A stretch of DNA of 64,000 bases from Spirochaetia bacterium (lineage in GTDB: Bacteria; Spirochaetota; Spirochaetia; UBA9216): contig OY776510.1 of NCBI GenBank assembly GCA_963675665.1, forward strand, positions 3,296,001 to 3,360,000, read 5' to 3'. The translations under genes and the position numbers were made by a program. Below, one piece after another: positions 1 to 18,140 of the stretch. The notes below the pieces were generated by a model. It was given only the letters and a program-made list of their open reading frames with translations, was not told where the DNA came from and did not search any database. The first letter of the stretch is position 1, and each line of letters opens with the position of its first letter.

Positions 1-795
1 GCCGCGGTCAAAGTCCTGAAGCATTGACGAGCGGTTAGGTCCCGTCTTTTCTGAAACTGAATAGACTGTTTCAAGCGGTTTGTCATATGTAAGTGTGATC
101 CCGGATTTATTACAAACCAAAACTGCTTCTTCAACAAGATCTTTCATTATTGCTTTTGTTTCATCAAAATCAAGAAGCTGGCCGTTTTTAAGTCCGGTAA
201 GAGCCGTAAGAGCATTTATTCCGACATTGATTACAAGTTTGCTCCATACAAGGCTTTCAATATTATTTTCAATATCTGCTTCAAAGCCGGACGATTTCAG
301 AACATCGATGAAAGGTAACAGTTTGTCGTTTTTTTTATCGGACATACATATATGGGTAGGGCCGTTACCTGCATGTTTGATGTGACCAGGGCCTGCAAAA
401 GTTGCTCCCTGAGAGGTAACGCCCGCGGCGGTATTTGACGGTCCGAAATGGTTTTTAAGAATCTCCTCGTTGCCATAGCCGTTTTGCAGAGTAACAACTA
501 CAGTTCCCGGTAATGCTGCAGATTTGAAATTGGAAGCAACAATTTCAGTAGCCGTAGATTTTACAAAAACAATAATAATATCCGAACCGTTTACAGCCGC
601 AGGGTCGGAACTGGCCTCAGGGTAAACCGTATCGGTTTTGCCGGTGGCAAGCGTTTCGATTATCAAACCGTTTGAATTTATTGCGTCTATATGCGCCTTG
701 TTGATGTCATACAGAACAACCTCGTTTCCCGAGGCCGAAAGCTTTCCGCCGAAAAGAGAACCCATTGCGCCCGCGCCGATAATGGATATTTTCAT
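1..795 (-). CDS. panE: 2-dehydropantoate 2-reductase (ketopantoate reductase), 3' end runs off window
   Basis: Translated by hand (absent from the ORF track because it has no stop in the window): MKISIIGAGAMGSLFGG (Rossmann), VFVKS, TLQNG, WSKLVINVGIN, NRSSMLQD. GGAGG RBS upstream of the ATG at 795. Confidence 0.92.
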   Translation of the reverse strand, partial: MKISIIGAGAMGSLFGGKLSASGNEVVLYDINKAHIDAINSNGLIIETLATGKTDTVYPEASSDPAAVNGSDIIIVFVKSTATEIVASNFKSAALPGTVVVTLQNGYGNEEILKNHFGPSNTAAGVTSQGATFAGPGHIKHAGNGPTHICMSDKKNDKLLPFIDVLKSSGFEADIENNIESLVWSKLVINVGINALTALTGLKNGQLLDFDETKAIMKDLVEEAVLVCNKSGITLTYDKPLETVYSVSEKTGPNRSSMLQDFDRG

Positions 796-810
796 TTATA
801 ACCTCCGATA

Positions 811-1776
811 TTATTTAATTCCATGTAATTCTGAATAGCTTTTTACGCCGAACATGGAGACGGCGCTTTTGACGGCATCAATAATTGCAAGAGAAGTTGC
901 GTCGGCAGCAAGCACGCAAACTGCGTCGAGCGCTGATTTAACCCCGCCGGTAGACATACAGAACATTGTATCTCCGTCGGTGGTCGTGTGTGAAGGGTTA
1001 ATGGCCCTGGCCATTCCGTCGTGGCTTACCATTGCTACCCGTTTCGCTTCAGCCTTAGTTAAATCGGCATTGGTTGCAACAACTCCTATAGTTGTATTTT
1101 TCATGAACTGTTCGGAATATTCATTCCAGCTTCCGCGCATAAGTTCGTTTACCGACCTGAAATTGCCGTCGGAATCAAGGGCGCCCGCAAGTATTTCACC
1201 TGTTTTAGGGTCGATAACGTCGCCGAGGCTGTTTACGGCAATTATTACGCCGACGACAAGGTCGCCGTTTCTGATGCTTGCAGTGCCGAGACCGCCTTTC
1301 ATAACATTGGACGGTCCCCCCGCAATTCCAATGGATGCTCCGGTTCCTGCGCCTACGCAACCCCTTTCGGCATTATCGCTGCTCATGTTACAGCAGGCCA
1401 GGTAGCCCATTTCCCGATCGGGTCTTACTTTCGGATTACCGATAAGCAGATCGTAAAGAATTGCCCCGGGAACTATCGGGACAGTAGCAAAACCCGTGTC
1501 AAAGCCTATACCTTTCTCTTCAAGGTACTGCATGACGCCGCAGGCGCCGTCCAGTCCGAATGCGCTGCCGCCCCCAAGATAAACAGCATGAGCGTGCTTA
1601 ACAAGGTTTTCCGGCGCGAGGCAGGACAGTTCCCTTGTGCCGGGGGCTCCTCCTGTACAGGAGTAACCCGTAACCGCACCGTTTGCTGCAGCAATTACAG
1701 TACATCCTGTACCGTTTTTCATATCCTGGGCATGACCGACTTTTATTCCCGGTACATCACAGATTGAATTAAGCAT
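811..1776 (-). CDS. Peptidase S58/P1 family (DmpA/ThnT/NylC-like Ntn hydrolase)
   Basis: Motifs DVPGIKVGHA, GGAPGTRE, GGSAFGL, PIVPGAILYDL, GAGTGA, the NTT autocleavage/nucleophile site, and HTTTDGD. Confidence 0.88.
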   Translation of the reverse strand: MLNSICDVPGIKVGHAQDMKNGTGCTVIAAANGAVTGYSCTGGAPGTRELSCLAPENLVKHAHAVYLGGGSAFGLDGACGVMQYLEEKGIGFDTGFATVPIVPGAILYDLLIGNPKVRPDREMGYLACCNMSSDNAERGCVGAGTGASIGIAGGPSNVMKGGLGTASIRNGDLVVGVIIAVNSLGDVIDPKTGEILAGALDSDGNFRSVNELMRGSWNEYSEQFMKNTTIGVVATNADLTKAEAKRVAMVSHDGMARAINPSHTTTDGDTMFCMSTGGVKSALDAVCVLAADATSLAIIDAVKSAVSMFGVKSYSELHGIK

Positions 1777-1788
1777 GTTAGACCTCGA

Positions 1789-2985
1789 TTATTTATTTAG
1801 TGTTTCTTCAGTTTCAACGGCTATCATCATCTCTTCATCAGTCGGGATGACGAGAATTTTCACTCTTGAATCTTCAGCGGATATCAGAGCTTCCTTCCGG
1901 CAACCCCTGTTACGTTTTTCATCAATTTTGATTCCCAGAAACTCAAGCCCGACGCATATTGAGGATCTTATTGTATCGGAATTCTCTCCGACGCCGGCAG
2001 TAAAAATAAGAGCATCCATTCTACCGTTAAGGCTGGGCATAAGCGCCCCTATATACCTGCGGATTGAACGCGTAAAGACATTAAGCGCCAGGACGGCCCG
2101 CTGATTCCCGTTATCAGCAGCTTCAAGAATATCACGAATGTCGCTTGATATTCCGCTGAGTCCGAGAAGCCCTGATTTTTTATAGATAAGTTCCTTAACA
2201 TAATCCACTGAATATCCCAAATTGCCGATAAGCTGAAGCACGACCTCAGGGTCTACGTCTCCTGATCTTGTTCCCATGGGAACCCCGCAGACAGTGCCGT
2301 AGCCGAGTGATGTATCAACTCCCGAACCGCCGATTGATGCTGCAAGGGTAACGCCGCCGCCGATATGGCAGCTTATTGTATGAAGATTTTTCAATGGTAT
2401 ACCCAGTATCTCCGCAGCCCTGATATTGATATATTTATGAGATGCGCCGTGATAACCGAATTTTCTGAAACCGTGTTCGGAATAGCAGGCGTAATCGAGT
2501 GCATATATATATGCTTCCTGTTCCATACCGCTGTAATACGCTGTGTCGAACGATGCAACATGAGGAATATCAGGAAGTTTTTGCTGGGCAGCCTGGACTC
2601 CCAACAGGCAGGCAGGATTATGAAGCGGGGCAAGAGGCGTATATTTTTTAATTTCAATTAAAAGTTCAGGCGTTATTAAAACCGGTCCGGACATTCCTGC
2701 ACCGCCCTGAACAATCCTGTGGCCGACTGCGTGTATTTCGGAAATATCTTTAATCAAGCCGGCGGAAGGGGCAATAATACTTTCAAGCGCATAGTCTATT
2801 GCCGTGTTGTGATCCGGAATATCAAGTTCTTTAACAATTTTATCCCGGCCGGAAGGCTGGAAATTGAGAATTCCGTCAATTCCGATACGTTCAATAAGCC
2901 CTTTGGCCAGGGTAATCTTTTTACCGGTTTCTATCAATTGAAATTTAAGCGATGAACTGCCGCTGTTGATTACAAGTATATTCAT
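1789..2985 (-). CDS. ackA: Acetate kinase family protein with atypical acyl pocket
   Basis: INSGSSSLK, GHR, APLHNP, FDTA, GTRSGD, FTAGVGEN, PTDEE. Start moved to the ATG at 2985 because a GGAGG RBS precedes it. Confidence 0.85.
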   Translation of the reverse strand: MNILVINSGSSSLKFQLIETGKKITLAKGLIERIGIDGILNFQPSGRDKIVKELDIPDHNTAIDYALESIIAPSAGLIKDISEIHAVGHRIVQGGAGMSGPVLITPELLIEIKKYTPLAPLHNPACLLGVQAAQQKLPDIPHVASFDTAYYSGMEQEAYIYALDYACYSEHGFRKFGYHGASHKYINIRAAEILGIPLKNLHTISCHIGGGVTLAASIGGSGVDTSLGYGTVCGVPMGTRSGDVDPEVVLQLIGNLGYSVDYVKELIYKKSGLLGLSGISSDIRDILEAADNGNQRAVLALNVFTRSIRRYIGALMPSLNGRMDALIFTAGVGENSDTIRSSICVGLEFLGIKIDEKRNRGCRKEALISAEDSRVKILVIPTDEEMMIAVETEETLNK

Positions 2986-3007
2986 ATAATAGCCTCCGAA
3001 GTACGGA

Positions 3008-3036
3008 TATCTTAGCATATTTGCGCAAACATTCAA
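3008..3036 (-). promoter_or_regulatory. sigma70-like promoter of the ack-S58-panE operon, with a palindromic operator (3017-3032) overlapping the spacer
   Basis: Minus strand reads TTGAAT-16nt-TAAGAT with a TG extension. ATATTTGCGCAAACAT at 3017-3032 is one mismatch from a perfect palindrome. Confidence 0.55.
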
Positions 3037-3128
3037 GTAAAAGATTCAAAAACAATGCTGTTAAGAAAAGTAATAATGGGTTATAGTAGAAGCACAAAAA
3101 GAAAATATGGAATTAAGAGGAGAATTAT

Positions 3129-3995
3129 ATGAGTTCGCATCCTGAAGAAACAAAAAAACTGCTCACAGCAGATTTGCAGAAGATGAAAGACAACGGAGAA
3201 AAGATTTCAATGATCACAGCTTATTCATATCCGCAGGGGATGATAGTCGATCAGGCCGGAATAGATATAATACTGGTAGGTGATTCTCTCGGAATGGTTG
3301 AGCTTGGTTATATTGATACTGTGCCTGTAACAATGGACGAAATGCTTATGCATACAAAAGCTGTAACAAGAGCCGTAAAACGCGCTCATATAGTAGGTGA
3401 TTTACCGTTTATGTCATACAACATTTCAACCGAACAGGCTGTTACAAATGCCGGTATTCTTTACAAGGACGGACGGGCCGATTCGGTTAAATTTGAAGGC
3501 GGTCAGGATTATGCAAATATAGCCTCTGCAGTTACCCGGGCGGGAATACCTTTTTTTGCTCATATTGGACTGACTCCGCAGACAGCAGCCATGCTGGGCG
3601 GTTTCAAGGTACAGGGAAAGTCAATTGACGCGGCAAAGGCAGTTCTTGACGATGCACTTGCAATGCAGGATGCCGGTGCATTCGCTATAATTCTCGAAGC
3701 TATTCCTCAGCAGCTTGCAGCGATTATTACTGAGAAACTTACAATACCCACAGTTGGAATAGGGGCCGGACCGGACTGTGCGGGCCAGGTACTTGTACTG
3801 CATGATATGGTTGGATTGTTTAAGAGGTTTACACCGAAATTTGTAAAGGTTTACGCTGACATGTATACTACACAGCTGGACGCAGTAAAGAATTATATAA
3901 GTGATGTGAAGGATGTAAAATTTCCTGCTGAAGAGCATAGTTTTAATATGAAGCAGGATATGGTTGAAGAACTTAAAAAAGCAATCGGGGTATAA
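3129..3995 (+). CDS. panB: 3-methyl-2-oxobutanoate hydroxymethyltransferase
   Basis: ILVGDSLGM, DLPFMSY, VKFEGG, HIGLTPQ, GIGAG, GQVLVLHD. GAGGAG RBS. Confidence 0.95.
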   Translation: MSSHPEETKKLLTADLQKMKDNGEKISMITAYSYPQGMIVDQAGIDIILVGDSLGMVELGYIDTVPVTMDEMLMHTKAVTRAVKRAHIVGDLPFMSYNISTEQAVTNAGILYKDGRADSVKFEGGQDYANIASAVTRAGIPFFAHIGLTPQTAAMLGGFKVQGKSIDAAKAVLDDALAMQDAGAFAIILEAIPQQLAAIITEKLTIPTVGIGAGPDCAGQVLVLHDMVGLFKRFTPKFVKVYADMYTTQLDAVKNYISDVKDVKFPAEEHSFNMKQDMVEELKKAIGV

Positions 3996-4907
3996 ATGTC
4001 GGCGGAATTAATAAAAGGCTCAGTAATCCGTGAGGAGATCCTCACGGAACTGAGGGCCGAGACTGAGGAGCTTAAAAAAAAATACGGGAAAGTTCCCGGA
4101 CTGGTAACAATTCTTGTCGGAGAAAGCCCGGCATCTGTTTCTTATGTTACCCTGAAGATCAAGACAGCCAAAAGTTTGGGGTATAATGAAATTCAGGACA
4201 GCAGGTCTGTTAATATTACGGAAGAAGAATTGCTTGAGCTGATCAAAAAGTATAATAAAGATGACAGTATAAACGGAATTCTTGTTCAGTTGCCGCTGCC
4301 GGACCATATTGATGAAAAGAAAGTCATTAATGCAATTGATCCTGACAAAGACGTCGACGGCTTTCATCCTGTAAATGTCGGACGTCTAATGATAGGCGGC
4401 GATGAGGTGCTGTTTCCGCCGTGTACACCGGCAGCAATACAGGAGATGATACTTCGGGCGGGCGTGGAAACCAGAGGCGCTGAAGTCGTAGTAGTAGGCA
4501 GATCCAATATTGTCGGAAAACCAATCGCAAATATGATGCTTCAAAAGGGGCCGGGAGCTAATTCCACGGTGACTGTTGTTCATACCGGAACAAAAGACCT
4601 CGCTGCTCACTGTCTGCGGGCAGATATACTTATAGTTGCTGCAGGAGTCCCGGGCTTGGTCAAACCAGAATGGATAAAGCGCGGAGCCTGTGTAATCGAT
4701 GTGGGTGTTAACAGGATCGGCGAAAAGGTAAGTGAAAAAACAGGCAAAACTATTGCAGTGTTGAAAGGCGATGTTGATTTTGAAGCGGCCCGTGAGCGGG
4801 CCGGCTGGATAACCCCGGTTCCGGGAGGTGTCGGACCGATGACTATTACAATGCTGATGAAGAATACTTTAAAATCGTTTAAAAACAGTCTCGGAATAAA
4901 AATATAA
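3996..4907 (+). CDS. folD: Methylenetetrahydrofolate dehydrogenase/cyclohydrolase
   Basis: GILVQLPLP, KDVDGFH, PCTP, GRSNIVGKP, TPVPGGVGPMT. Abuts the panB stop codon. Confidence 0.95.
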   Translation: MSAELIKGSVIREEILTELRAETEELKKKYGKVPGLVTILVGESPASVSYVTLKIKTAKSLGYNEIQDSRSVNITEEELLELIKKYNKDDSINGILVQLPLPDHIDEKKVINAIDPDKDVDGFHPVNVGRLMIGGDEVLFPPCTPAAIQEMILRAGVETRGAEVVVVGRSNIVGKPIANMMLQKGPGANSTVTVVHTGTKDLAAHCLRADILIVAAGVPGLVKPEWIKRGACVIDVGVNRIGEKVSEKTGKTIAVLKGDVDFEAARERAGWITPVPGGVGPMTITMLMKNTLKSFKNSLGIKI

Positions 4908-4962
4908 CAATTAATTGGCTGAAATATCCGGAGAGAAGATTTTATTTATGGATATCCAGGGT

Positions 4963-4994
4963 ACATCTCTATAAACTGCAGTTTTTAGAGATGT
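4963..4994. repeat. REP-like palindrome, copy 1
   Basis: ACATCTCTATAAACTGCAGTTTTTAGAGATGT, a 32-bp inverted repeat with one mismatch. Confidence 0.8.
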
Positions 4995-5049
4995 CCTTAT
5001 TTTAAAAGCTTAATAAATTATGTAAATTAAGACAGAAAGTTTAAAAAAA

Positions 5050-6144
5050 GTGAAAATGGAAATTGACAGGTACCAAAAAGAATATATACAACACATTACA
5101 ATAATTGCTTCAAAATGTATTTTCCTGATATCATTATCAGCCTTCCTGGTAAACGGAGCATGGTTCTTTTTTGATGATTTTAAAAAGACCCTGTTCCAGG
5201 AAAGTGTAATTCTAAGCGCAACAATGTTCAGCTTTATTAATATTCATTTATCTAAACGAGGTTATATTTTACAGGTATTCAGATGCTATCTTGTATACGG
5301 CCTTTTTTTCGGAGTAATGATAATGTGGAGCGCCGGTGATTTTTTTATTTTTACCGGAATATCAATAATTTCAATATGTTCCCTTATGGCAATTTTTGCA
5401 ATGCAGCGAAAAGAATCGGTTTTCTGGTGTATAATGTATTTTTCAGCCGGAATAGCAGGTTTGTTTTTAAGATATTTTATTAATATATGGGAATCAGGGT
5501 TTTCGTTAATACAAACCGTTCAGATTTCAATTTTTATGTTTATCGCAATTGGAGCATTTATTTTTTTGGGTGTAAATATTTCCTCAATGTTGAAAACTGC
5601 AATGAATAATATAAATGTTCAGAAACAGGAAATTGAGGAATATGCGTCTAAACTTTATAAGTTGTCTATTACGGACAAATTGACAGGATTGAATAACAGG
5701 CTCCATCTCGACGAAGTTTTAAATTCGGAGCTGGAAAGATCTAAAAGATATAATGCATTTTTCGCTGTTATTATGATGGATATTGATTATTTTAAAAAAG
5801 TGAACGACAGATACGGGCATCAGAAAGGCGATGAAGTTTTAAAAAAAATATCGGAATTAATTATTGAAAATATCAGATCTACAGATGTCGCCGGGCGCTG
5901 GGGTGGAGAGGAATTCCTGGTAATCTGTCCCGAATCCGATTCAGCTTCTGCGGAAAAACTTGCGGAAAAGATGAGAATTATAATTGAAAATTACGAGTTT
6001 ATGCTTACATACAATCTGACTGCAAGCTTCGGAATCAGCCAGTATGAAAGTACAGATGACATAGCAAATATCATCTGTAAAACCGACAGAGCCCTTTATC
6101 AGGCAAAACACGAAGGCAGAAACCGGGTAATTGTAAGTAAATGA
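5050..6144 (+). CDS. Membrane-bound diguanylate cyclase (GGDEF)
   Basis: Several hydrophobic helices, then TDKLTGLNNR, DIDYFKKVNDRYGH, an RSTD I-site and GGEEF. Start is GTG 5050 or ATG 5056. Confidence 0.9.
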   Translation: MKMEIDRYQKEYIQHITIIASKCIFLISLSAFLVNGAWFFFDDFKKTLFQESVILSATMFSFINIHLSKRGYILQVFRCYLVYGLFFGVMIMWSAGDFFIFTGISIISICSLMAIFAMQRKESVFWCIMYFSAGIAGLFLRYFINIWESGFSLIQTVQISIFMFIAIGAFIFLGVNISSMLKTAMNNINVQKQEIEEYASKLYKLSITDKLTGLNNRLHLDEVLNSELERSKRYNAFFAVIMMDIDYFKKVNDRYGHQKGDEVLKKISELIIENIRSTDVAGRWGGEEFLVICPESDSASAEKLAEKMRIIIENYEFMLTYNLTASFGISQYESTDDIANIICKTDRALYQAKHEGRNRVIVSK

Positions 6145-6170
6145 ATCCGTAATATTTTTTTCTGTCGCAG

Positions 6171-7934
6171 CTAAAACAAGCCTTTAACCTTGCCGGTATT
6201 TACGTCTACATCAATGCGTCTGAAAGCCGGATCTGAAGCCGTTCCGGGCATTAATTTTATATCACCGGCTACCGGGACTATAAAACCTGCACCCTGATAG
6301 ATTAGAATATCACGTATCGGAAGTGTCCAGCCTGTTGGGCGGCCCTTGATTGACGGGTCATGAGACAGGCTGAGATGAGTTTTTACCATACAGGTCCCAA
6401 GCGTCGCAAGGCTTTTGTCTGACTGAATATCTTCAAGCTTTTTAAGAGCTTCAGGAGTGTAACTTACGCCGTCGGCTCCGTAAACTTCTTTTGCTATAAG
6501 CTCAATTCTTTTTCCAAGAGGCGTATTATCCGAATAAAGAAATCTGAAATCAGGAGTAATTTCGCATGCTTTTACAACAGCCTCGGCCAGTTCGATTGCA
6601 CCTTCGCCGCCCTTTTCCCAGTGTCTGGAAACAGCAACGCCTGCTCCGGCAGCAATGCATGCGTCTTTTATAACCTGAAGCTCATTTTCAGTATCAGTAT
6701 AAAAATGGTTGATACAGACAACGGCGGGTACTCCGCTTTTTTTAACTGTTTCAATGTGTTTAAGAAGGTTTTCCAGGCCTTTCTTTACAAGCGAGGTGTT
6801 TTCTTCAGTATAAGCTTTATCCAGCGGTTTGCCCGGAGCTACACGTGGGCCGCCTCCGTGCATTTTTAACGCCCGTACGGTACAGACAATAACGGAGCAG
6901 TTGGGGGTAAGCCCTGAAAATCTGCATTTAAGGTTCCAGAATTTTTCAAAACCTATATCCGCTCCGAATCCGCTCTCGGTTACATGGTAATCTGCAAGTT
7001 TCAATCCAAGTCTGTCTGCAATTATCGATGACTGCCCGATCGCTATGTTTGCGAAAGGACCGGCATGAACCAGAACGGGCTGTCCTTCAATTGTCTGCAT
7101 AAGATTCGGGTTGATTGCTTTCGACATAATAGCCGTCATTGCTCCGTCAACTTCAAGATCCGCAGCGGTTACAGGCGCACCTTTTTTATCGTATCCTACA
7201 ATCATTCTTGAAATTCTTTCGCGCATATCTTTCAAATCTTTTGCTACGGCAAGTATGGCCATTATTTCGGAAGAAACGGTTATCTGGAAACCGCTTTTCA
7301 TCATGAATCCGTCCATCTTTCCGCCGAGACCGATAATGATTTCTCTCAGTGCCTGTGCCGAGAAATCAATGGCCCATCCGATTGCCGGATTGCTCGGGTC
7401 AATATCAAGACGTTTCACATTTTTCTTTTTCAGGGTTTCATCACTGTAATTGAACTCATGCTGAATACGGCTGGTTAGAGCAACCATTGCAAGATTATGG
7501 GCGTTTGTTATTGCATCGTTATCGCCAGTAAGTCCCAGACTGAAGTCAGAAAGGGGAATACACTGGGCCAGGCCGCCTCCTGCAGCGGAACCTTTTATAT
7601 TGAAGGTAGGACCGCCTGAAGGCTGACGAATTGCCCCGGCAACTGATTTCCCGATTTTTCCGAGACCCTGGACAAGTCCCATGGTCGTAGTTGTTTTTCC
7701 TTCGCCCAAAGGCGTGGGATTGATGGCGGTAACCTCAATATATTTTCCGTTTGGTTTATTTTCGAGGCGGTCGAGAATTGCCTTATAGTCAAGTTTGCCG
7801 ATATAGTGACCGTACGGAAGGACTTCTTCATCCTTGAGGCCGAGATCTTCGGCAATTTGACGAACTGTTTTCATGTTTTTTTCTGAAAGTTCAGCGATCT
7901 CCCAGTCTTTAAGTTTTGTAGGATCAAGTTTCAT
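6171..7934 (-). CDS. fhs: Formate--tetrahydrofolate ligase
   Basis: [46 protein letters not shown]. Start set at MKLDPTK (7934), which has a GGAG RBS. Confidence 0.95.
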
Positions 7935-7983
7935 TTTTGCTCCAGAAAAGAAGTTGTAAAAAGTTATTTTCAATAAAAAGAAG

Positions 7984-8011
7984 ATCTCCAAAAACTGCAG
8001 TTTTTGGAGAT
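7984..8011. repeat. REP-like palindrome, copy 2
   Basis: ATCTCCAAAAACTGCAGTTTTTGGAGAT, a perfect 28-bp palindrome. Confidence 0.8.
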
Positions 8012-8020
8012 TCCAATATT

Positions 8021-8923
8021 TTAATAAACAAGCAGCGTATCTTTCAGATACTGGTTATAGCTTGTTTCATACCAGAACGGGGCGAGAATACCTCCGGCAT
8101 ATGTGGCGGTATAAAGAAGACCGGTTCCGGCTATCAGGGGGATGCTGTCTGTTAAAGCGATGGACAATATAAATGCCGCAGTTGTGCCTATGCTCAGAAA
8201 ACCGAGTTCATTGAAGCCCTGCAAGAAATTACCACCGATGCCGAATGTTACAGCATTAACCAGCATGGCTACAATAGAATTGTCGAGAGCATTATCGTTG
8301 TATAATTCTCTTCTTAGAACCTGGTCGGTAATCTGCATTGCCGGAGTATCGATCTCTATTTCTTTGAAATCAAGCAAAGCAGCAAATCCGATTTCACTTA
8401 TAAGCTGTGTCAATGTCTCGGCATCATAGGCTCCTTCATCATCATTAGCCAAAATAATACTTCCGTCTCCGGAAAGCTCAGCAGCAGCTTCAGCCGAAAG
8501 ATTAAGAAAGGTATCTATATTAACACCTGTTTTTTTAACGGATTTTTCAATTTCACCGGTCTGCACATTGATTTTGTCTATAACAAGAATATATTTATTC
8601 CCGAATTTACTTAAATTCCCGAGAAAGAGGTAATTTACTGAAAGGAGTTCCCCTATTTCTGATGCTGAAGCTTCATTTGTAAGTCCCTTCATTGTAAGTT
8701 CATGTTCATTAAGAATGGACTGCATATTGCCCCTTTCAAGTACTATAAACTGACCGGCAGCAACAAGATCGGATCTGAAAAAATCAGCAATAGCCAAAGC
8801 GTCAGATTCCTGAACATCCTTTGCTTCGAAATCAAGGACCGCTACTCTCTCCCTGGAAAATGCAGGCAGTGAAACAACGAAAATAAGGACAATTAAAATA
8901 ATAATCATTTTTTTTATAGTCAT
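8021..8923 (-). CDS. Exported protein: CsgG/HfaB-like N-domain plus Borrelia P13-like C-terminal membrane domain
   Basis: Signal peptide. VAVLDF...[20 protein letters not shown] matches the CsgG/HfaB pattern. The C-terminus [16 protein letters not shown]...[17 protein letters not shown] resembles P13. Confidence 0.55.
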
Positions 8924-8958
8924 AAAATACCTCGTAATGTTTAAACCAATATTGCTAA

Positions 8959-8987
8959 ATTGTATTATTTATGCATATTGGTGTCAA
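8959..8987 (-). promoter_or_regulatory. sigma70 promoter for the 8923 gene
   Basis: Minus strand TTGACA-17nt-TACAAT. Confidence 0.7.
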
Positions 8988-8995
8988 TCATAAAG

Positions 8996-9036
8996 AAAAG
9001 CCGGCAGTCGGGAAGCATGAACCCGTACAGCCGGCA
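8996..9036 (-). terminator. Probable intrinsic terminator after the carbamoylase pair
   Basis: Imperfect GCCGGC..CGGG/CCCG..GCCGGC stem followed by TTTT on the minus strand. Confidence 0.5.
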
Positions 9037-9063
9037 GACTTATAATTTGTTTTAAAAGGTGGT

Positions 9064-10311
9064 TTAAATCTCGTTTGCAGTTTTAAGTATGCACTGGAGA
9101 AGTACATTCACACCGCGTTCACAGTCTTCGTACGGAGTGTCTTCTACCTCAACGTGGCTTCTTCCGTCGATGGACGGAACGAAGATCATTGCGCCGCGGG
9201 TGATCTGGTTTACTTCGCTCATGTCATGTCCGGCGCCGGAAACCATACGTTTGCAGCTGTACCCGAGTTCTTCGGAAGTCTCAACAACCCTGTCCCAGAG
9301 TATTTTGTCGAATGGTGCATGAGCAACCTTCCAGGTTTCTTCCGTTTTTATAGGACAACCGCGTCTTTCGGCGATTACTTCGAATTCTTTTTTCATCATT
9401 TCCCATGCTTTTATAGCATGATCATCATCCCAGGAACGGATATCAACTGTAAAGTGAACACCGTCCGGAATTATGTTTCTTGAATTCGGATAGTTCTGAA
9501 TTTCTCCTACAGTTCCAACCATATTACCCATCTGATGGGCAACCTTATTTACCACAATGTTCATTTCGGAAAAGGCAAGCAGAGCATCGTTTCTGCCAAT
9601 CATTGGAGTAGGGCCAACCTGGTTGGCTGTGCCTTCAAGCCAGATGTCGTACCAGTGCAGGCAGAGAATACCCTTGGGAGCCCCTATTTGGATTTTTTCA
9701 CGGTGAAGGACCGGGCCCTGTTCAATGTGCAGTTCATAGGCTGCGTAAATATCCCATTCCTTGTGTGATGCCGGGAATGTACCTTTATAACCGATTCTGT
9801 CGAGTTCTTCACCGAAAACGGTTTTACCGTCGCGGTCTTTTCTGGCATAAGCCCATTCTTTGGTATGATTGCCTACCCAAACGCCCGAACCCATACATGC
9901 AGGGGCAAACCAGCCGCCTTCTTCATTGGTCCAGTCAACAATAACAAGATCACGTTCAAGTTCGATTTTGTTCTCGTTGATAACCCGCATTACTTCGAGT
10001 GCGCCAAGGACCCCAAGGATTCCGTCAAACCTGCCTCCGGGACGCTGTGTGTCAAAGTGTGAGCCTGTCATAACTGCGCCTAGATTTGGGTTTTTACCCG
10101 AACGCCTGGCAAAAATGTTGCCCATTTCATCGATAATTACTTCACAACCACATTCCTTGTACCATTTAACCAGAAGGTCGCGGCCGATTTTGTCTTCATC
10201 GGTAGCTGCGCAACGGATAAGTCCGTTGTTCTCTGTTTTTCCGATTCTGGCAGACTCTTCTATAGTACTTTGCAGCCTGGCGCCGTCGACTCGTAATTCA
10301 TTTAACTCCAT
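9064..10311 (-). CDS. M20 Zn-dependent N-carbamoyl amidohydrolase (hydantoinase/carbamoylase family), paralog 2
   Basis: GSHFDT, GRFDG, WTNEEG, ELHIEQGP, SGAGHD. Confidence 0.88.
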   Translation of the reverse strand: MELNELRVDGARLQSTIEESARIGKTENNGLIRCAATDEDKIGRDLLVKWYKECGCEVIIDEMGNIFARRSGKNPNLGAVMTGSHFDTQRPGGRFDGILGVLGALEVMRVINENKIELERDLVIVDWTNEEGGWFAPACMGSGVWVGNHTKEWAYARKDRDGKTVFGEELDRIGYKGTFPASHKEWDIYAAYELHIEQGPVLHREKIQIGAPKGILCLHWYDIWLEGTANQVGPTPMIGRNDALLAFSEMNIVVNKVAHQMGNMVGTVGEIQNYPNSRNIIPDGVHFTVDIRSWDDDHAIKAWEMMKKEFEVIAERRGCPIKTEETWKVAHAPFDKILWDRVVETSEELGYSCKRMVSGAGHDMSEVNQITRGAMIFVPSIDGRSHVEVEDTPYEDCERGVNVLLQCILKTANEI

Positions 10312-10345
10312 ATTTAATCCCCTCTAATTATTATCTTTTATTGGT

Positions 10346-10375
10346 AATCTCTAAAAACTGCAGTTTTTAGAGATT
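10346..10375. repeat. REP-like palindrome, copy 3
   Basis: AATCTCTAAAAACTGCAGTTTTTAGAGATT, a perfect 30-bp palindrome lying between the two carbamoylase genes. Confidence 0.8.
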
Positions 10376-10387
10376 TACCTTAGCTTG

Positions 10388-11656
10388 TTATTCAGCATCA
10401 GCTTTGAGTACAGCATTCAACAGAACAGTAGCTCCTTCAGTACAGTGCTCAGGTGTGGAATATTCAGGTTCACAATGTGAAAGCCCATCTTTTGACTGAA
10501 CGAATATCATGGTTGTAGGCATCATATATGCGGCAAATTGAGCATCATGTCCGGCGCCTGAATGAAGAACCTGGTGAGAAATACCGGTTTCTTCAGCAGC
10601 CTCTTTAACAAATGAAAAAAGTTTTTTATCCCAGTAAACAGTGTCTCTGTTCCACATTTTTTCTACTTCACATTTGCATCCTGCCCATACTTTGTCTGCG
10701 CAGCTTTTAACAATCTCCAGAACCCTGTCTCTGAGTTCAGCGGATTCGTGGCGGCAGTCAATAGAAAAGTCGACGTAATCCGGAACACACGTATGAACAT
10801 TCGGATGACATACAATTTCGCCGGTTGTATAAACAAGTTCCGGATGTCCGAGTTTGTCAATTTCATTATGAAGGTAACAAATGACCTGTGAAGCGGCGAA
10901 AAGCGCATCCTGTCTTTTGTCCATGGGAAATGTACCTGCATGAACAGTTTGTCCGTAGAATCTCAACCTGTAGTTGAACATACCGAGAACACAGTCGACA
11001 ACACCTACATCTTTACCTGCATCTTCAAGAATCGGGCCCTGTTCAATATGTATTTCAAACATATTCATGTATTTGTCCTGGCTGAGCCTGTATTTCCTGT
11101 CGCCCTTGTAGTTGGAGTTGTCGAGAGCTTTACCGAAGGTCTCTGAAGGATCAAGAACGCTTTTGGATTTCATCATGTCTTCATATTTGAATTTTCCTTT
11201 TATATCTTCAGGAAGGTAATCGTAACAGACAATACCTGAAACCATCATTGCGGGAGGATACAGAGAACCTTCTTCATTTGTCCATATCATGGCCGTCAGC
11301 GGGTGTTTATGCGGTATGTTCTTTTCCGCTACAGTCTCAAGTACCTCCATTGCCGACATAACACCGAGAATCCCGTCATAGTTACCGCCGTTCTTGACGG
11401 AATCGGTATGAGAAGCCATTACTATTCTTTTTGCATCGGGATCGCTGCCCGGAAGTGTCGCGTACATATTTGCAACATCATCGATTTCGATTAAAGCACC
11501 TATTGCTTCCATTCTCTTCCTGAACTCTTCTCTTGCCAGAACATCCTCCGGTGATAAAGTATATCTTGTTATCCCGCCGTGTCCTGCATCACCGTATTTA
11601 CTCATGGTTGTGATTTTGTCAGTCATTCTTTCTATACTACATTCGTAAAGAGCCAT
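10388..11656 (-). CDS. M20 Zn-dependent hydrolase, probable beta-ureidopropionase, paralog 1
   Basis: ASHTDS, GNYDG, WTNEEG, HIEQGP, HAGT, SGAGHDAQ, GLSH. Confidence 0.88.
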   Translation of the reverse strand: MALYECSIERMTDKITTMSKYGDAGHGGITRYTLSPEDVLAREEFRKRMEAIGALIEIDDVANMYATLPGSDPDAKRIVMASHTDSVKNGGNYDGILGVMSAMEVLETVAEKNIPHKHPLTAMIWTNEEGSLYPPAMMVSGIVCYDYLPEDIKGKFKYEDMMKSKSVLDPSETFGKALDNSNYKGDRKYRLSQDKYMNMFEIHIEQGPILEDAGKDVGVVDCVLGMFNYRLRFYGQTVHAGTFPMDKRQDALFAASQVICYLHNEIDKLGHPELVYTTGEIVCHPNVHTCVPDYVDFSIDCRHESAELRDRVLEIVKSCADKVWAGCKCEVEKMWNRDTVYWDKKLFSFVKEAAEETGISHQVLHSGAGHDAQFAAYMMPTTMIFVQSKDGLSHCEPEYSTPEHCTEGATVLLNAVLKADAE

Positions 11657-11682
11657 ATATATTATCCTCCTGGAAAGTTAAA

Positions 11683-11740
11683 ATGTTTGCCTTAACATTT
11701 GATTAATAAACATCTTAACAGATAAATTTATATATTGCAA
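11683..11740 (-). promoter_or_regulatory. Promoter plus operator of the carbamoylase pair
   Basis: Minus strand TTGCAA-17nt-TAAGAT, followed by ATGTTAAGGCAAACAT (11683-11698). Confidence 0.55.
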
Positions 11741-11879
11741 ATAAAAATTTTATAATGGCTTTTCAATGAAGTAGAATACAGATAACGGCATTTTGCTGCC
11801 ATGAATAATATGCTAAAACAACTTGACTATTGACTGACCGGCAGATTAGTCTGAAAACATAACCAGTCAGGAGGATCGG

Positions 11880-14846
11880 ATGAAATTCAGGGAATTACGG
11901 TACTACTATGAGAAATTCAAGTACGGCGAAGACAATTTTCACAATTTAATGCAGTATCGGGTGAAAGAAATTCTTCTGATATCCACGTTTTACGATGCAT
12001 ATATTTTTGAACACGATTCATTATTGTCTGAACAGATAGTAGGCGAATATCATCAGCTGAACCTGACTACAGTTCCGCGAATAACATCGGTACCGACGGG
12101 CGAGGAAGCCTTAAAATTGCTGAAAGGCAAACATTTTGATCTGGTAATTACTACAATGAGAACCGGAGAAGCAAACACATTCGAGCTTTCAAGAAAAATA
12201 AAGGAGCTGCATAAAAACCTTCCGGTAATCCTGATGCTTACGGTAAAATCTGATATTGCAATTATAAAAAAGAACAGAAGCAGGCTTGACTGTATTGAGA
12301 ATGTATTTCTCTGGAACGGGGATTCAAGGCTGATACTTGCAATGATTAAATATATCGAAGACAAGAAAAATGCACCGTATGATACCGATAACGGGTTGGT
12401 GAAGGTCATTCTTCTGGTTGAAGATTCGATAAATTTTATTTCAATTTATCTGCCGCTTCTATATACAGAGATTATGGAACAGACACAGCGGCTGATTTCA
12501 GAAGAACTGAATGACAACCAGAAATACAACAGGATGCGAACAAGACCCAAAGTCCTTGTTACAGATAATTATGAAGAGGGAATGAGGCTTGCCAGGAAAT
12601 ACGGAGAACACCTTTTATGCGTAATGTCGGATATGGAGTTTTATCGCAAAGATGTACTTGATGATGAAGCCGGAGTCAAATTTATAAGCGAAATAAAAAA
12701 AGAAAATCCTGATATGCCTTGCATACTTCAGTCTTCGGTTCTGAACAACAGAAGACTGGCTGAAAGTCTGGGAGTAACCTTTTTTCATAAACAATCCCAG
12801 TTTCTGTTAAAGGATCTAAGAAACTTTATTGTTGAAAATCTCGGATTTGGAGATCTTGTCTTTAGGGATGAGCAGGGAGGAGAGATTGCAAGAGCAAAGA
12901 AGCTGGCGGATTTTGAAAGGATAATTCCCAATTTGCCTATGGAGGTGATACTTCATCACACAAGGCAGAAAGATTTTTCAACGTGGCTTATAGCTCACGG
13001 CGAGATGCAGCTTGCCAAAAAGATCAGACCGGTGGAAGCCGAGGATTTTGAGACTAATGAACAATACCAGGAATTCCTTGCCGTGCAGTTCAGAAACCTG
13101 AGAAAGATGCGAAACAGGGGGAAAATTGTATCACTCAATCGTGAAAGTATCAAACAGGACGGTGTTATAACCCGAATTGATTCCGGCTCTCTCGGCGGGA
13201 AAGGCCGTGGCCTGGCTTTTTTTAATTCCTTTCTTGTGACGACAGAATTCGAAACGGGTTTTAAAAGTGCGAAGGTAAAAATACCTCAGACTACAATTAT
13301 ATGTACGAACGGATTTAACGATTTTGTAAGAACGAATAATTTGTTTGAATTGCGAAATTGTGATGACGATGATGAAATAAAACGAAGGTTTATTAAAGGA
13401 CGTCTTTCTGAGTCGATTGTAGAAAAGCTTCGAATTTACCTTGAAGAGATTAATGTTCCGATTGCGGTCCGTTCTTCAGGTCTGCTTGAAGACTCACAGT
13501 CTCAGCCGTTTGCCGGGGTTTATCAGACATATATGCTTCCAAATAATAATGATGATATAGAAGATCGGCTGGTACAGTTGGTGAACGCGGTTAAACTGGT
13601 TTATTCATCAGTGTTTCTGAATGATACCAGAAAATATATAGATAATCTGAATTACATAATCGAAGAAGAAAGCATGGCTGTTGTGATACAGGAAATTGTA
13701 GGGCAGAGGTACGAAGACTACTATTATCCCCATTTGTCCGGGGTAGGTCAGTCATATAATTATTACCCGATTGGGAATATGGTTAATCAGGACGGCGTTG
13801 CGTCTATTGCCGTTGGACTTGGACAGTCTGTAGTTGAAGGTGAGAGGAATTTTCGTTTTTGTCCCGAATATCCGACCGTCAATTATCTGGCGGATGAAGA
13901 AATAATAAAATCGACCCAGACAGAATTTTATGCTGTTGATCTAAGCAGAAAGAATTTTAATATTCTCAAGGGAGAATTTGAAACTCTTGCAAAATTGAGA
14001 ATGTTTAAAGCTGAAAATCATAAAAACCTTTATCATATGGCTTCGGTTTGGGATCAGGACAATCATAGAATAGTCGACGGTATAGGAATGCCCGGACCGC
14101 GAATAGTTAATTTTGCAAATATTCTGAAATATAATGTTTTTCCGCTGTCGGAAATTGTAAAAAAAGTTTTGGAGATGGCCCAGGTCGCGCTCGGAATCCC
14201 TGTAGAAATTGAATTTGCCGTTGATTTAACAAAAAACGAAAACGAGGGAGTTTATCCTGTTTTTTATCTTCTTCAGGTAAGACCCATGACAGTTAATTTT
14301 GAAGACTCGCTGATTGATATGGAAAGCATAGATGAAGAAGATATGCTTCTGTACACTGAGGAAGGATTGGGAAACGGTACAGTTGATGATGTTTATGATA
14401 TTGTTTTTATTGATCCCGACAGATTTGATAAAACGAAAACACCTGAAATGTGCCTTGAGATAGATAAAATCAATACGATGCTGAAGCAGCAAAACAGGGA
14501 ATATATACTAATCGGGCCCGGAAGGTGGGGTACAAGAGACAGGTTCCTGGGAATTCCTGTAATGTGGTCGCAGATAAGCAAGGCCAAGATTATAGTGGAA
14601 GTTGGGCTAAAAGATTATGAGATCGAACCCTCTCAGGGCACGCATTTTTTTCACAATGTTATTGCCATGAATATAGGGTATTTTAATGTTCCTTACACGA
14701 AAAAAAAGAAATCATTTATTGACTGGAATCACATTAAAAGCGTTAAGGGCGCAACAAACTATGATTATTTTACACATATTGTGAGTGATAAGCCATATAA
14801 AGTTATTATGGATGGAAAGAACAGAAAGTCAATCATATGTAAGTGA
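11880..14846 (+). CDS. Receiver-like domains fused to a PEP synthase/PPDK N-terminal ATP-grasp domain (gdhA-associated, uncharacterised)
   Basis: Receiver-like strands FDLVIT and VILLVEDS. PPDK_N motifs GSLGGKGRGL, AVRSS, EDS, FAG, EIEFA, LLQVRP. C-terminal GPGRWG and SQGTHFF. No PEP/pyruvate TIM barrel. Confidence 0.8.
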   Translation: MKFRELRYYYEKFKYGEDNFHNLMQYRVKEILLISTFYDAYIFEHDSLLSEQIVGEYHQLNLTTVPRITSVPTGEEALKLLKGKHFDLVITTMRTGEANTFELSRKIKELHKNLPVILMLTVKSDIAIIKKNRSRLDCIENVFLWNGDSRLILAMIKYIEDKKNAPYDTDNGLVKVILLVEDSINFISIYLPLLYTEIMEQTQRLISEELNDNQKYNRMRTRPKVLVTDNYEEGMRLARKYGEHLLCVMSDMEFYRKDVLDDEAGVKFISEIKKENPDMPCILQSSVLNNRRLAESLGVTFFHKQSQFLLKDLRNFIVENLGFGDLVFRDEQGGEIARAKKLADFERIIPNLPMEVILHHTRQKDFSTWLIAHGEMQLAKKIRPVEAEDFETNEQYQEFLAVQFRNLRKMRNRGKIVSLNRESIKQDGVITRIDSGSLGGKGRGLAFFNSFLVTTEFETGFKSAKVKIPQTTIICTNGFNDFVRTNNLFELRNCDDDDEIKRRFIKGRLSESIVEKLRIYLEEINVPIAVRSSGLLEDSQSQPFAGVYQTYMLPNNNDDIEDRLVQLVNAVKLVYSSVFLNDTRKYIDNLNYIIEEESMAVVIQEIVGQRYEDYYYPHLSGVGQSYNYYPIGNMVNQDGVASIAVGLGQSVVEGERNFRFCPEYPTVNYLADEEIIKSTQTEFYAVDLSRKNFNILKGEFETLAKLRMFKAENHKNLYHMASVWDQDNHRIVDGIGMPGPRIVNFANILKYNVFPLSEIVKKVLEMAQVALGIPVEIEFAVDLTKNENEGVYPVFYLLQVRPMTVNFEDSLIDMESIDEEDMLLYTEEGLGNGTVDDVYDIVFIDPDRFDKTKTPEMCLEIDKINTMLKQQNREYILIGPGRWGTRDRFLGIPVMWSQISKAKIIVEVGLKDYEIEPSQGTHFFHNVIAMNIGYFNVPYTKKKKSFIDWNHIKSVKGATNYDYFTHIVSDKPYKVIMDGKNRKSIICK

Positions 14847-14961: not shown

Positions 14962-16308
<1,347 letters not shown>

Positions 16309-16371: not shown

Positions 16372-16944
16372 TTAAAGAAGCAATTCAACTTTCTGGAAAT
16401 CTGCGATGCCGGCAGCATGGCCTTCATCAAAGTCGACATGCATTTCTAGAGCCTGATCATCACCGGCTTTTATCACAACCTCGTTAAAAACAAGGCTTCT
16501 GGGACCGGGTACCCTGACGCTTACAATATCACCCGTTGAAAGGCCCAGCCTTTCAGCATCGGAAGAATGCATATGAATGTGCCGCAATGCGGCAATCAGA
16601 CCTTCTTCAAGTTCCAGGGGCCCTGCCGGGCCGATTACTTCTATGCCTGAACTCCCGGCAATATTACCGGACAGCCGCAACGGGGCGGTAACGCCCAGCG
16701 TAAGAGTATTTGTAATAGACACTTCTGCCTGGGTATAAGGACGTTCGGGGCCTACAACTACCACATGGTCTATGCGGCCGTTGGGGCCGACAAGTGAAAC
16801 AGTTTCCCTGCAGGCAAACTGACCGGGTATGGTGAGATCTCTTGATTTTGTAAGTTGATATCCTTTTCCGAAGAGAATTTCAACATCTGATCTTTTAAGA
16901 TGGATATGTGCATCGGAACGGGCAATAGGAAGTTTGAATTCCAT
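16372..16944 (-). CDS. pduL: PduL-family phosphotransacylase, divergent, no encapsulation peptide
   Basis: Two HxH motifs (HIHL, RHIHM), PGQFA, GPxR, LEMHVD. Overlaps the ygeW stop (TAATG). Confidence 0.8.
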   Translation of the reverse strand: MEFKLPIARSDAHIHLKRSDVEILFGKGYQLTKSRDLTIPGQFACRETVSLVGPNGRIDHVVVVGPERPYTQAEVSITNTLTLGVTAPLRLSGNIAGSSGIEVIGPAGPLELEEGLIAALRHIHMHSSDAERLGLSTGDIVSVRVPGPRSLVFNEVVIKAGDDQALEMHVDFDEGHAAGIADFQKVELLL

Positions 16945-18140
16945 TATAAAAACCTCCTGCCTGCATTTTTTGAAAGCTGATGCAATTTTTCAGCCGGATT
17001 GGATATTTTACGCAGGAAAATCATTGCCGCTATGATGTAAGGTTTATAGGAAGCTTCTCTGTAAGTCAGGTTTCGGTATTTATCAAAAACATTTGCAGAA
17101 ACTTCTCCGTTTTTGCAGCTGATGCCGGAGATGTCTGCAGGAAGGCAGTGAAGATATAATGCATCTCCGTTTTTTGTCTTCTGCATGAGATTTTCATCAC
17201 ACTCCCAGTCGGTAAACTCCGCATTCTGGGCAAGGCACTGTTTTTCAAGTTGAACAAGTCCAGCAGTGTCGCCGGATTTTAAAAGTTCGGTGCGTTGCTG
17301 CATTACGCTGAAGGGAGCCCAGCTTTTTGGGTAGACAATATCGGCATCCTTAAAAGCATCCTGCATTGAATCTGTTTTTGTAAAAGCAGCTCCGGACTCC
17401 CTGCAGAACGCGGCTGCTATCTCTTCAGTTTCCGGAATCAGGCTGTAGCCGGGCGGGTGGGCAAGGGTAACATCCATACCGAAGCGGCTCATCAGGGCTA
17501 TGGCCCCCTGGGGAACGGAAAGAGGCTTTCCGTATGACGGGGAATATGCCCAGCTCATTACAAGTTTTTTCCCTTTAAGTTTTTCAACTCCGCCGAAATG
17601 ATTAATAAGATGAAGGGTGTCCGCCATGACCTGGGTGGGGTGATCAAGATCACACTGAAGGTTGACCATGGCCGGACGGGAAGGCAGAAGCCCTTCAGAA
17701 AAATCTTCGTCAAGAGAATCTGCAACCTCTTTCATGTAGGTATGGCCTTCACCGATATACATATCGTCGCGTATTCCGATTGCTTCGGTAAGAAAAGAAA
17801 TCATGCAGGCTGTTTCTCTTACAGTTTCGCCGTGAGCAATCTGGGACTTCTTTTCGTCAAGCTCCTGTACGGCAAGGCCAAGCAGGTTTGCAGCGCTTGC
17901 ATAAGAAAAACGGGTACGGGTTGAATTATCCCTGAAAATGGAAACGGCCAACCCGGAATCGAATATTCTAGGAGAAACATTGGACTCTCTGAGAAGCCTG
18001 AGAGCATCAGCTGTCTTCAAAACAGTCGATATTTCGTCATCGGTCTGTTCCCAGCTTAACAAAAAATCTTTCTGCGACATATCTATGGTATTCAGTGATG
18101 CTATATCATCTATCAGTTCATTCAATTTGTTATCAGACAT
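16944..18140 (-). CDS. ygeW: YgeW-type knotted carbamoyltransferase
   Basis: FRDNSTRT, SQIAHGETVRETA, IGIRDD, DHPTQ, WAYSPSYGKPLSVPQG, YPKSW, HCLPAD. Confidence 0.92.
   Translation of the reverse strand: MSDNKLNELIDDIASLNTIDMSQKDFLLSWEQTDDEISTVLKTADALRLLRESNVSPRIFDSGLAVSIFRDNSTRTRFSYASAANLLGLAVQELDEKKSQIAHGETVRETACMISFLTEAIGIRDDMYIGEGHTYMKEVADSLDEDFSEGLLPSRPAMVNLQCDLDHPTQVMADTLHLINHFGGVEKLKGKKLVMSWAYSPSYGKPLSVPQGAIALMSRFGMDVTLAHPPGYSLIPETEEIAAAFCRESGAAFTKTDSMQDAFKDADIVYPKSWAPFSVMQQRTELLKSGDTAGLVQLEKQCLAQNAEFTDWECDENLMQKTKNGDALYLHCLPADISGISCKNGEVSANVFDKYRNLTYREASYKPYIIAAMIFLRKISNPAEKLHQLSKNAGRRFL

Follow-up and report, generated by a model that had tools for sequence, protein, structure and literature searches.

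The DNA analysed here, referred to as the window, is a stretch of 64,000 nucleotides from the genome of a Spirochaetia bacterium of the order UBA9216 (contig OY776510.1, positions 3,296,001 to 3,360,000, or G000:C1:3296001-3360000). The genome is a single contig of 5.15 Mb and is 96.4% complete. At the left end of the window lie the genes for a variant kinase of the acetokinase family (ack), a self-processing amidase of the S58/P1 family (S58) and a PanE-family 2-dehydropantoate reductase (panE). As described in the initial annotation, these three genes form one tight operon, with gaps of 12 bp and 15 bp, which is divergent from panB abutting folD (0 bp), with fhs two genes further on; the coordinates agree in each case (Table 1). 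The kinase probably starts at Met18 of its longest open reading frame (position 2985), because alignments with Protein Data Bank structures begin at that residue. Promoter and terminator scans gave results close to the shuffled background, with no promoter-like match inside the divergent intergenic region, and no Rfam family was matched in positions 1-12000 at E values up to 0.1.

Beyond the edge of the window, the remainder of panE is followed by a convergent Liv-type ABC transporter (LivGFHMK) made of two ATPases, two permeases and a Peripla_BP_6 binding protein. Past the transporter is a divergent gene for a phosphate butyryltransferase (PTB)-like protein, which scores 355 bits against TIGR02706 (cut-off 410.5) and 367 bits against NF004472 (cut-off 399). 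The genes panB, folD, fhs and PTB each occur once in the genome, and two VOR-like gene sets are encoded elsewhere in it. PanB passes an equivalog-level model, TIGR00222. The full PanE protein contains PF02558 and PF08546 and scores 267 bits with the subfamily model TIGR00745 (cut-off 141), and it attained no 2-dehydropantoate reductase equivalog cut-off.

Residues 3-312 of the S58 protein match positions 1-303 of the 307 positions of the PF03576 model. In an alignment of 15 homologues N227, T228 and T229 vary little or not at all, and the predicted cleavage site is N227|T228. In ThnT the nucleophile occupies the position aligned with T228, a position that reads as Cys in PDB entry 3s3u, taken by us to be the T282C variant of ThnT. 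The closest solved structures are a nylon-oligomer hydrolase (9cxr, E value 2e-62) and an aminopeptidase/esterase, followed by ThnT (1e-47); the structures of DmpA and BapA did not reach an E value of 0.001. Among solved structures, ThnT, a pantetheine hydrolase, is the closest relative of S58 with a known natural substrate. Among known structures, three entries described as nylon hydrolases (9cxr, 9yys and 9z0a) come closest to this S58 subfamily, and their natural substrate may lie in pantetheine or pantothenate metabolism.

The genome encodes five full Ack paralogues. The cluster kinase retains N7, S10, S12, K14, R91, D148, H180 and R241 when aligned with 1g99 and in a 12-sequence alignment. 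In Methanosarcina thermophila numbering, Asn7, Arg91, Asp148, His180 and Arg241 are catalytic residues, and Val93, Leu122, Phe179 and Pro232 form the acetate pocket. In and near this pocket, V93 and L122 of M. thermophila AckA are retained and F179Y, P232T, N211G, T231G and E234C are changed, as is FHQT to YYSG. The description of the protein as an atypical AckA is thus borne out, with the catalytic residues kept and the acid pocket altered. The changes are largely shared by the eight cluster kinases compared: in all of them "TPLE" has become GT[VAMN][CA], with P232T in each and Cys or Ala in place of E234, N211G is found in seven, YY[ST][GD] replaces FHQT in six, and F179Y is found in two. 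Two of the other paralogues, P1 and P2, have the canonical residues at those pocket positions that were examined.

To view the cluster in related genomes, the stretch around S58 was fetched from 8 further members of the order, and the proteins of the present genome were mapped onto these stretches by tblastn. The panB gene adjoins S58 in all eight loci. The kinase gene is situated between the two in seven, the exception being G005, where panE-S58 is divergent from panB and the kinase is missing. The panE gene was found in seven loci, the eighth contig stopping before it. Seven loci have folD after panB, six have fhs inside the fetched stretch, five the Liv transporter and three PTB. The neighbourhood pointed out by the initial annotation is therefore conserved and not a product of chance, and because the genomes are kin this conservation represents stable inheritance and not independent recurrence. 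Across the order, identity to the proteins of this genome is 59-85% for PanE, 76-90% for PanB and 49-74% for the kinase, and only 51-55% for S58. The flanking genes are 64-90% identical to those of congeners, as against these 51-55%, and S58 proteins from metagenomes are up to 83% identical. In a quick tree the S58 of this genome pairs with that of a Spirochaetales metagenome-assembled genome (MAG) and not with those of its congeners (SH-aLRT 86). Together, the tree pairing and the low identity beside conserved flanks suggest an in-place replacement of S58 by a homologue.

Several genes that would connect PanB and PanE to coenzyme A (CoA) are missing. Six-frame family searches of the whole genome gave no match for PanC (PF02569), PanD (PF02261), CoaB, CoaC or the archaeal phosphopantothenate synthetase PPS (PF02006), the last search having four archaea as positive control; CoaX and CoaE were found, and the neighbours of their genes give no functional hint. 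The absence of panC and panD from the window, noted in the initial annotation, thus extends to the entire genome, and the possibility that panC lies just beyond the edge is excluded; the upstream region also lacks it. In the 11 genomes of the order, from 5 genera (G000-G010), PanC was found in none (control reference genomes, 9 of 14) and CoaB in none (14 of 14 controls), and PanB is present in 9, S58 in 10 and CoaX in 6. Over the phylum, CoaB was found in 243 of 301 sampled genomes, the 58 without it belonging mostly to families of the same class. Because CoaBC is absent, pantothenate has no known onward route in the order, and because PanC is absent as well, it cannot be the CoA precursor of this lineage. 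The CoA is probably derived from salvaged (phospho)pantetheine.

The CoaX sequences were compared in this context. The Arg of a Gly-Ala-Asp-Arg (GADR) motif in CoaX holds the pantothenate carboxylate. The CoaX sequences of the order read GADL or GSDM at this site and those from four genomes with CoaBC read GADR; the Arg is missing from all seven CoaX sequences of the order and of a metagenome contig, L171, described below. One report names this motif as substrate-binding (PMC11315101). The survey was extended to 28 genomes of the same class, 14 without and 14 with CoaB, of which 19 have CoaX. All 12 sequences from the genomes lacking CoaB are Arg-less; among those with CoaB, four have GADR copies and four others have only the Arg-less type (GxD[LIVM]). 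Overall, the eight cases of GADR all occur in genomes with CoaB, and none of 19 sequences from CoaB-lacking genomes or L171 has it. The GADR type was thus seen only in genomes with CoaB, and B. subtilis CoaX lacks the pantetheine kinase activity that CoaA has (PMC11487621), which suggests that the Arg-less CoaX may be a pantetheine kinase. Stop codons interrupt the coaX gene of G006 (100% complete), and a search of G004 (97% complete) found no CoaX; both genomes keep the full cluster. The observation of two CoaX types concerns G000:C1:3204297-3205067, outside the window, and the loci L178-L206.

The S58 subfamily is very large, with at least 7981 proteins at an E value of 0.001 or less among 8000 candidates scored, and its names in the source are generic. 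Genome contigs were scanned with the 15-sequence S58 alignment, giving 80 loci from many phyla, and the neighbours within 5 kb were clustered. An ECF S-component was found at 13 loci, at 11 of these within 250 bp on the same strand. Other neighbours are a sodium:solute symporter (SSF; 6 loci), PanB (5), CoaX (4), PanC (4), BirA (3), PanE (3) and an ArgE/DapE-type M20 protein (3), and there are two CoaBC operons. Operons of the form ecfA-ecfA'-ecfT-S-coaX-coaBC-S58 occur in L019 and L037, birA-S58-ecfS-coaX in L069, panB-panC-S58 in L065, S58-DUF2520-panB-x-panC in L087 and S58-panE-M20-HAD-MBL-Dpp permease in L011; in L030 (Geosporobacter) the panE and S58 genes overlap. In all, 12 of the 80 loci have a bona fide pantothenate/CoA enzyme gene within 5 kb, where a rough chance expectation is 1-2. 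The ECF-S proteins received no NCBIfam assignment, and the SSF proteins score 46-116 bits against PanF, below its cut-off of 328. A quick tree of 88 rows, omitting the one locus of the 80 with a protein shorter than 270 residues, mostly follows taxonomy, and the pantothenate/CoA contexts are scattered over it. Because of this scatter, it is most economical to assume that the subfamily has a single activity in common, directed at the pantothenate/pantetheine scaffold, and we propose from sequence and gene context that S58 is an amidase acting on pantetheine or pantothenate.

Of the 80 S58 genomes 50 were searched for the pathway genes, mainly those with long contigs, a choice that could bias the counts; the set keeps 11 of the 12 loci with pantothenate/CoA neighbours (L009, L011, L012, L019, L030, L037, L042, L063, L065, L066 and L087, but not L069). 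PanC is present in 29 genomes, CoaB in 47, PanB above its cut-off in 32 and PanD in 15, all of the last having PanC. The three genomes without CoaB are two spirochaete MAGs with adjacent S58 and panE, G011 and G012, and G036. S58 was rejected as a general substitute for PanC, which 29 of the 50 genomes have. It was likewise rejected as a general substitute for PanD, that is, as a source of beta-alanine: PanD is present in 15 of the 50 genomes, including three of the five with S58 near panB or panC, and the ecf-coaX-coaBC operons are found in genomes that lack PanB and PanC and need no beta-alanine.

Five of the 50 genomes have PanB and lack PanC: G011, G012, G024, G037 and G044. In G011 (L126) panB is followed by genes for VOR alpha, beta and gamma subunits, with SHMT nearby. 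The Synergistaceae MAG G044 (L130, G044:C45:1-11000) has the order FTCD_C-IclR-panB-panE-TRAP(DctPQM), Geosporobacter G024 (L128, G024:C1:640000-658000) has BCCT-M24-IclR-panB, and G037 has DUF2520-panB. G024 contains PanB, PanE, S58 and CoaB, and PanC was not found in it. The IclR-type regulators, uptake systems and VOR beside panB and panE look catabolic, and these cases make clear that genomes outside the order, too, can have PanB and PanE but no PanC. Six PanB matches each were seen in G044 and in G041 (Syntrophobacter). In the metagenome contig L171, one strand carries ack (variant)-S58-panE-M20 (ArgE/DapE)-coaX, with gaps of 3, 12, -8 and 4 bp, and the divergent strand carries panB-VOR alpha-beta-gamma. 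L171 ties the interconversion of ketoisovalerate and isobutyryl-CoA directly to PanB. It also has two hydrolase-type enzymes beside PanE, matching the two amide bonds of pantetheine.

The variant kinase has a distribution of its own. G005, G011, G012 and G024 have one Ack each, canonical at the pocket positions, and the variant was not found in them; because the canonical Ack occurs there alone, the variant kinase is not required for the role of S58, PanE and PanB. A metagenome scan with the kinase signature GTxCGxPMGTR gave 41 loci, 36 of them with Ack. Three of the 36 carry S58-panE: L158 and L166, which are order-like, and L171. The signature loci were uninformative as a guide to the substrate of the kinase, the recurring neighbours being DUF4301 (7 loci), the methylmalonyl-CoA-mutase family (2) and a 2-hydroxyacid dehydrogenase (2). 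We propose that the variant is a kinase for short branched-chain acyl phosphates and ADP, with isobutyrate as the acid. A fusion of a Pta/Ptb-like domain with a full butyrate kinase, encoded further along the window, is another possible branched-chain acyl kinase, a point that matters for the part assigned to the variant Ack.

The locus is best described, at a likelihood that we put a little short of even, as a utilisation or catabolic module for pantetheine and/or pantothenate that feeds the ketoisovalerate hub. The analysis establishes the identities of the genes, their conservation and contexts, the phyletic gaps and the residue patterns; from these we infer every substrate, every reaction direction and the choice of the amide bond cut by S58. 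In the proposed module, the ABC transporter would import pantetheine or pantothenate. The ThnT-like S58, with Thr228 as nucleophile, and a second amidase, which in the relatives L011 and L171 would be the M20 deacylase, would cut the amide bonds to release pantoate. PanE would then oxidise pantoate to ketopantoate, and PanB with tetrahydrofolate (THF) would split this into ketoisovalerate and methylene-THF, both enzymes presumably running in reverse. The one-carbon unit would be converted by FolD, from methylene-THF to formyl-THF, and then by Fhs to formate and ATP. A VOR-type oxidoreductase encoded elsewhere would take ketoisovalerate to isobutyryl-CoA, from which the upstream PTB and the variant kinase would form isobutyrate and a further ATP. 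PTB, the kinase and the Liv transporter could also serve valine fermentation.

This scheme places every gene: transporter, amidase(s), PanE, PanB, FolD, Fhs, VOR, PTB and kinase. The enzymes added in relatives are hydrolase-type, uptake systems flank the cluster, and the cluster persists in genomes without a usable CoaX. Other anaerobes that lack PanC offer parallels, with panB beside VOR or beside IclR and a TRAP transporter. One spirochaete is documented to ferment branched-chain amino acids by way of a branched-chain acyl kinase, with an ATP gain linked to isobutyryl phosphate (PMC8085960). Reading (a) of the initial annotation, anaerobic catabolism with PanE and PanB in reverse, therefore fits the comparative evidence best.

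Several observations weigh against the catabolic scheme. On paper, each of the enzymes Ack, PTB, VOR, PanB, PanE, FolD and Fhs can run either way, and their direction is not readable from sequence. Pantothenate and pantetheine are scarce, yet the cluster is near-universal in the order, which looks more like a housekeeping role. The ArgE/DapE-type M20 proteins of L011 and L171 have no close homologue in the present genome (best identity 27%), leaving the second amide bond without an assigned enzyme. The presence of coaX in the operon of L171 would suit a biosynthetic role just as well, 33 of the 36 metagenome variant kinases have unrelated neighbours, and degradation is less obvious where S58 lies in panB-panC operons of prototrophs (L065, L087, L042 and L066). 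FolD and Fhs are housekeeping enzymes and the sole copies in the genome, and for that reason cannot be called dedicated to the module. The link of S58 and the kinase to pantoate metabolism, drawn in the initial annotation, is real and conserved.

That FolD, Fhs and PTB are single-copy genes also speaks for a composite locus without a single pathway, an explanation that is possible but rather unlikely. PTB, the Liv transporter and the variant kinase would then belong to the metabolism between valine or isobutyrate and ketoisovalerate, in either direction, FolD and Fhs to housekeeping one-carbon metabolism, and S58 would be a general pantetheine-recycling amidase for CoA salvage, with PanB and PanE present through the shared use of ketoisovalerate and methylene-THF. 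Such a locus agrees with the salvage operons in which S58 occurs without PanB or PanE (L019, L037 and L069), with the variant kinases elsewhere, most of which have no pantothenate neighbours, with the Glu/Leu/Val-type dehydrogenase gene at 14962-16308, and with the branched-chain amino-acid fermentation known in a spirochaete (PMC8085960). It leaves unexplained the retention of PanB and PanE without PanC, the tight or overlapping S58-panE genes in the order, G011, G012, L171 and Geosporobacter, and the arrangement of panB-VOR opposite ack-S58-panE-M20-coaX in L171. A different substrate altogether, some other 2-hydroxy-acid amide such as a peptide-like molecule or an N-(2-hydroxyacyl) amino acid, has a slim chance of being the target of S58 and the PanE-family dehydrogenase. 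Members of the PanE family can act as general D-2-hydroxyacid dehydrogenases, and the PanE of this cluster reaches only a subfamily model. The surroundings of S58 include Dpp/Opp- and Liv-type transporters and M20 peptidases, and the fold is promiscuous, as its closest solved relatives hydrolyse nylon oligomers. Against this, an equivalog-level panB is divergent from the operon in all eight loci of the order and in L171, and several phyla show S58 in association with CoaX, CoaBC, PanB and PanC.

The opposite direction, reading (b) of the initial annotation together with its variants, is synthesis independent of PanC and/or CoaB. Here the kinase would make the acyl phosphate of pantoate or (phospho)pantothenate, and the Thr ester of S58, likened to the related acyltransferase ArgJ, would pass the acyl group to beta-alanine or cysteamine, replacing the missing ligases. 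The order lacks PanC and CoaB and yet keeps PanB and PanE, the cluster is near-universal there with ack-S58-panE as one tight operon, and the kinase pocket has been rebuilt with smaller, more polar residues. It fits as well that coaX belongs to the L171 operon, that panE-S58 adjacency is seen only in genomes without PanC (G011, G012, G024 and the order), and that Geosporobacter has PanB, PanE, S58 and CoaB but not PanC. The reading is nevertheless weakened to the point of being improbable: no variant kinase was found in G005, G011, G012 or G024, PanC is present in 29 of the 50 S58 genomes, in some within the same operon, and the absence of CoaBC leaves pantothenate without an onward route. A single pair of kinase and S58 would face two amide bonds and would need a source of cysteamine, CoaX is broken in G006 and was not found in G004 although the cluster is kept, the extra enzymes of relatives are hydrolases, and ligation without ATP is, by rough estimate, thermodynamically poor. 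More doubtful still is the particular form in which the variant kinase and the Thr-acyl enzyme of S58 make up a new two-enzyme amide ligase, going from acyl phosphate to acyl-enzyme to attack by the amine, that would build pantothenate and/or pantetheine from pantoate made by PanB and PanE.

The proposed catabolic module can be compared with systems already described. S58 resembles ThnT of thienamycin biosynthesis (3s3u, 3tm1, 4ihe) in having the same S58/P1 self-processing fold, with the N|T site and nucleophile Thr aligned, and the CoA/pantetheine-scaffold substrate of ThnT matches the CoA-gene neighbourhoods of the subfamily. However, ThnT is about 100 residues longer, is encoded in an antibiotic gene cluster whereas S58 is found in primary-metabolism contexts, shares moderate identity, and is more distant in sequence than the nylon-oligomer hydrolases. 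Like the aerobic Pseudomonas route (pantothenase, EC 3.5.1.22), the proposed one would start with hydrolysis of pantothenate to pantoate (or its lactone) and beta-alanine. In Pseudomonas, pantoate is oxidised at C4 to dimethylmalate, without PanE or PanB. The proposed route, by contrast, would be anaerobic, would run through ketopantoate and ketoisovalerate, and would gain ATP by substrate-level phosphorylation. PanB and PanE are ordinary members of the families known from canonical pantothenate biosynthesis, but PanC, PanD, PPS and CoaBC are absent here; the archaeal PoK/PPS case shows that PanC is replaceable by a kinase and another ligase. The cluster kinase shares with the Ack/Pta and Ptb/Buk pairs the ASKHA acetokinase fold, all catalytic residues and a nearby PTB, and differs from AckA in its pocket (P232T, T231G, E234C and N211G). 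We know of no gene assigned to the kinase of spirochaete MA-2 that acts on branched-chain fatty acids. That enzyme, which gains ATP from isobutyryl phosphate, is a physiological precedent (PMC8085960).

The remainder of the window contains further genes, some of which may be connected with the module. Two M20 amidases after fhs are possible N-acyl-beta-alanine hydrolases by family, and their membership in the module is uncertain; an orthologue of the first, M20a, lies near fhs in L113, L117, L119 and L158. They are followed by a gene for a 988-residue protein with a response-regulator receiver and a PEP-synthase/PPDK-type ATP-binding domain (11880-14846) and then by the Glu/Leu/Val-type dehydrogenase gene mentioned above. 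A large cluster of the anaerobic purine/pyrimidine-degradation type occupies 16372-34728, with two xanthine-dehydrogenase-like sets, a YgeW-like carbamoyltransferase, a PALP enzyme, a YgeY-like M20 protein, a number of amidohydrolases, a DHO_dh-like gene and PTAC; FolD and Fhs may chiefly serve this cluster. At 55773-59587 an [FeFe]-hydrogenase large subunit adjoins a NuoF/GltD-like flavoprotein, through which the proposed fermentation might dispose of its reducing equivalents. Outside the window, just upstream of the PTB gene (G000:C1:3285374-3289307; L008 1374-5307), are an IS66 element (TnpB and transposase) and the reverse transcriptase/maturase of a group II intron.

Table 1. Genes and other features of the locus, numbered from the first nucleotide of the window
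Feature	Position	Strand	Remarks
panE/apbA-family 2-dehydropantoate reductase gene	1-795	-	leaves window; 305 aa in full, G000:C1:3295878-3296795
S58/P1 (DmpA/OAT-fold) self-processing amidase gene	811-1776	-	PF03576, E 3.7e-44
variant acetokinase-family gene	1789-2985 (longest open reading frame 1789-3036)	-	PF00871, E 1.9e-129; TIGR00016
divergent intergenic region, ack-S58-panE operon versus panB-folD	2986-3128		143 bp
panB, ketopantoate hydroxymethyltransferase gene	3129-3995	+	TIGR00222, 312 bits (cut-off 207.55)
folD	3996-4907	+	NF010765, 551 bits (cut-off 501)
GGDEF gene	5050-6144	+	
fhs, formate-tetrahydrofolate ligase gene	6171-7991	-	NF010032, 1088 bits
two M20 amidases, hydantoinase/carbamoylase family	9064-10311 and 10388-11656	-	TIGR01879, NF006769/NF006771
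Pta-like and butyrate-kinase fusion, 735 aa	51861-54068	+	TIGR02707, 449 bits (cut-off 289); PF01515

None of the enzyme families concerned is new; the novelty would lie in the pathway, in the role given to the S58 subfamily, and in a lifestyle without PanC and CoaBC in which PanB and PanE are kept. Apart from the passages cited, the literature was searched through listings and abstracts, and no paper was found that links S58/DmpA-family enzymes to pantothenate or that describes anaerobic catabolism of pantoate or pantothenate through PanE and PanB. To our knowledge, no bacterial salvage pantetheinase is known. The pantothenase protein was still unidentified in 2023, according to PMC10393543. 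If synthesis were the true direction, the locus would hold new ligase chemistry for an essential cofactor. If the catabolic reading is correct, the locus would supply the genes for an undescribed anaerobic fermentation of vitamin B5 or pantetheine, in which PanE and PanB run backwards and two ATP are made at the substrate level, and would show what a very widespread S58 subfamily, so far given generic names, does physiologically in the metabolism of CoA and pantetheine. The whole order and many other spirochaetes would be exposed as living without PanC and CoaBC. The presence of PanB and PanE in a genome would then not necessarily mean pantothenate prototrophy, which matters for predictions of vitamin auxotrophy in microbiomes.

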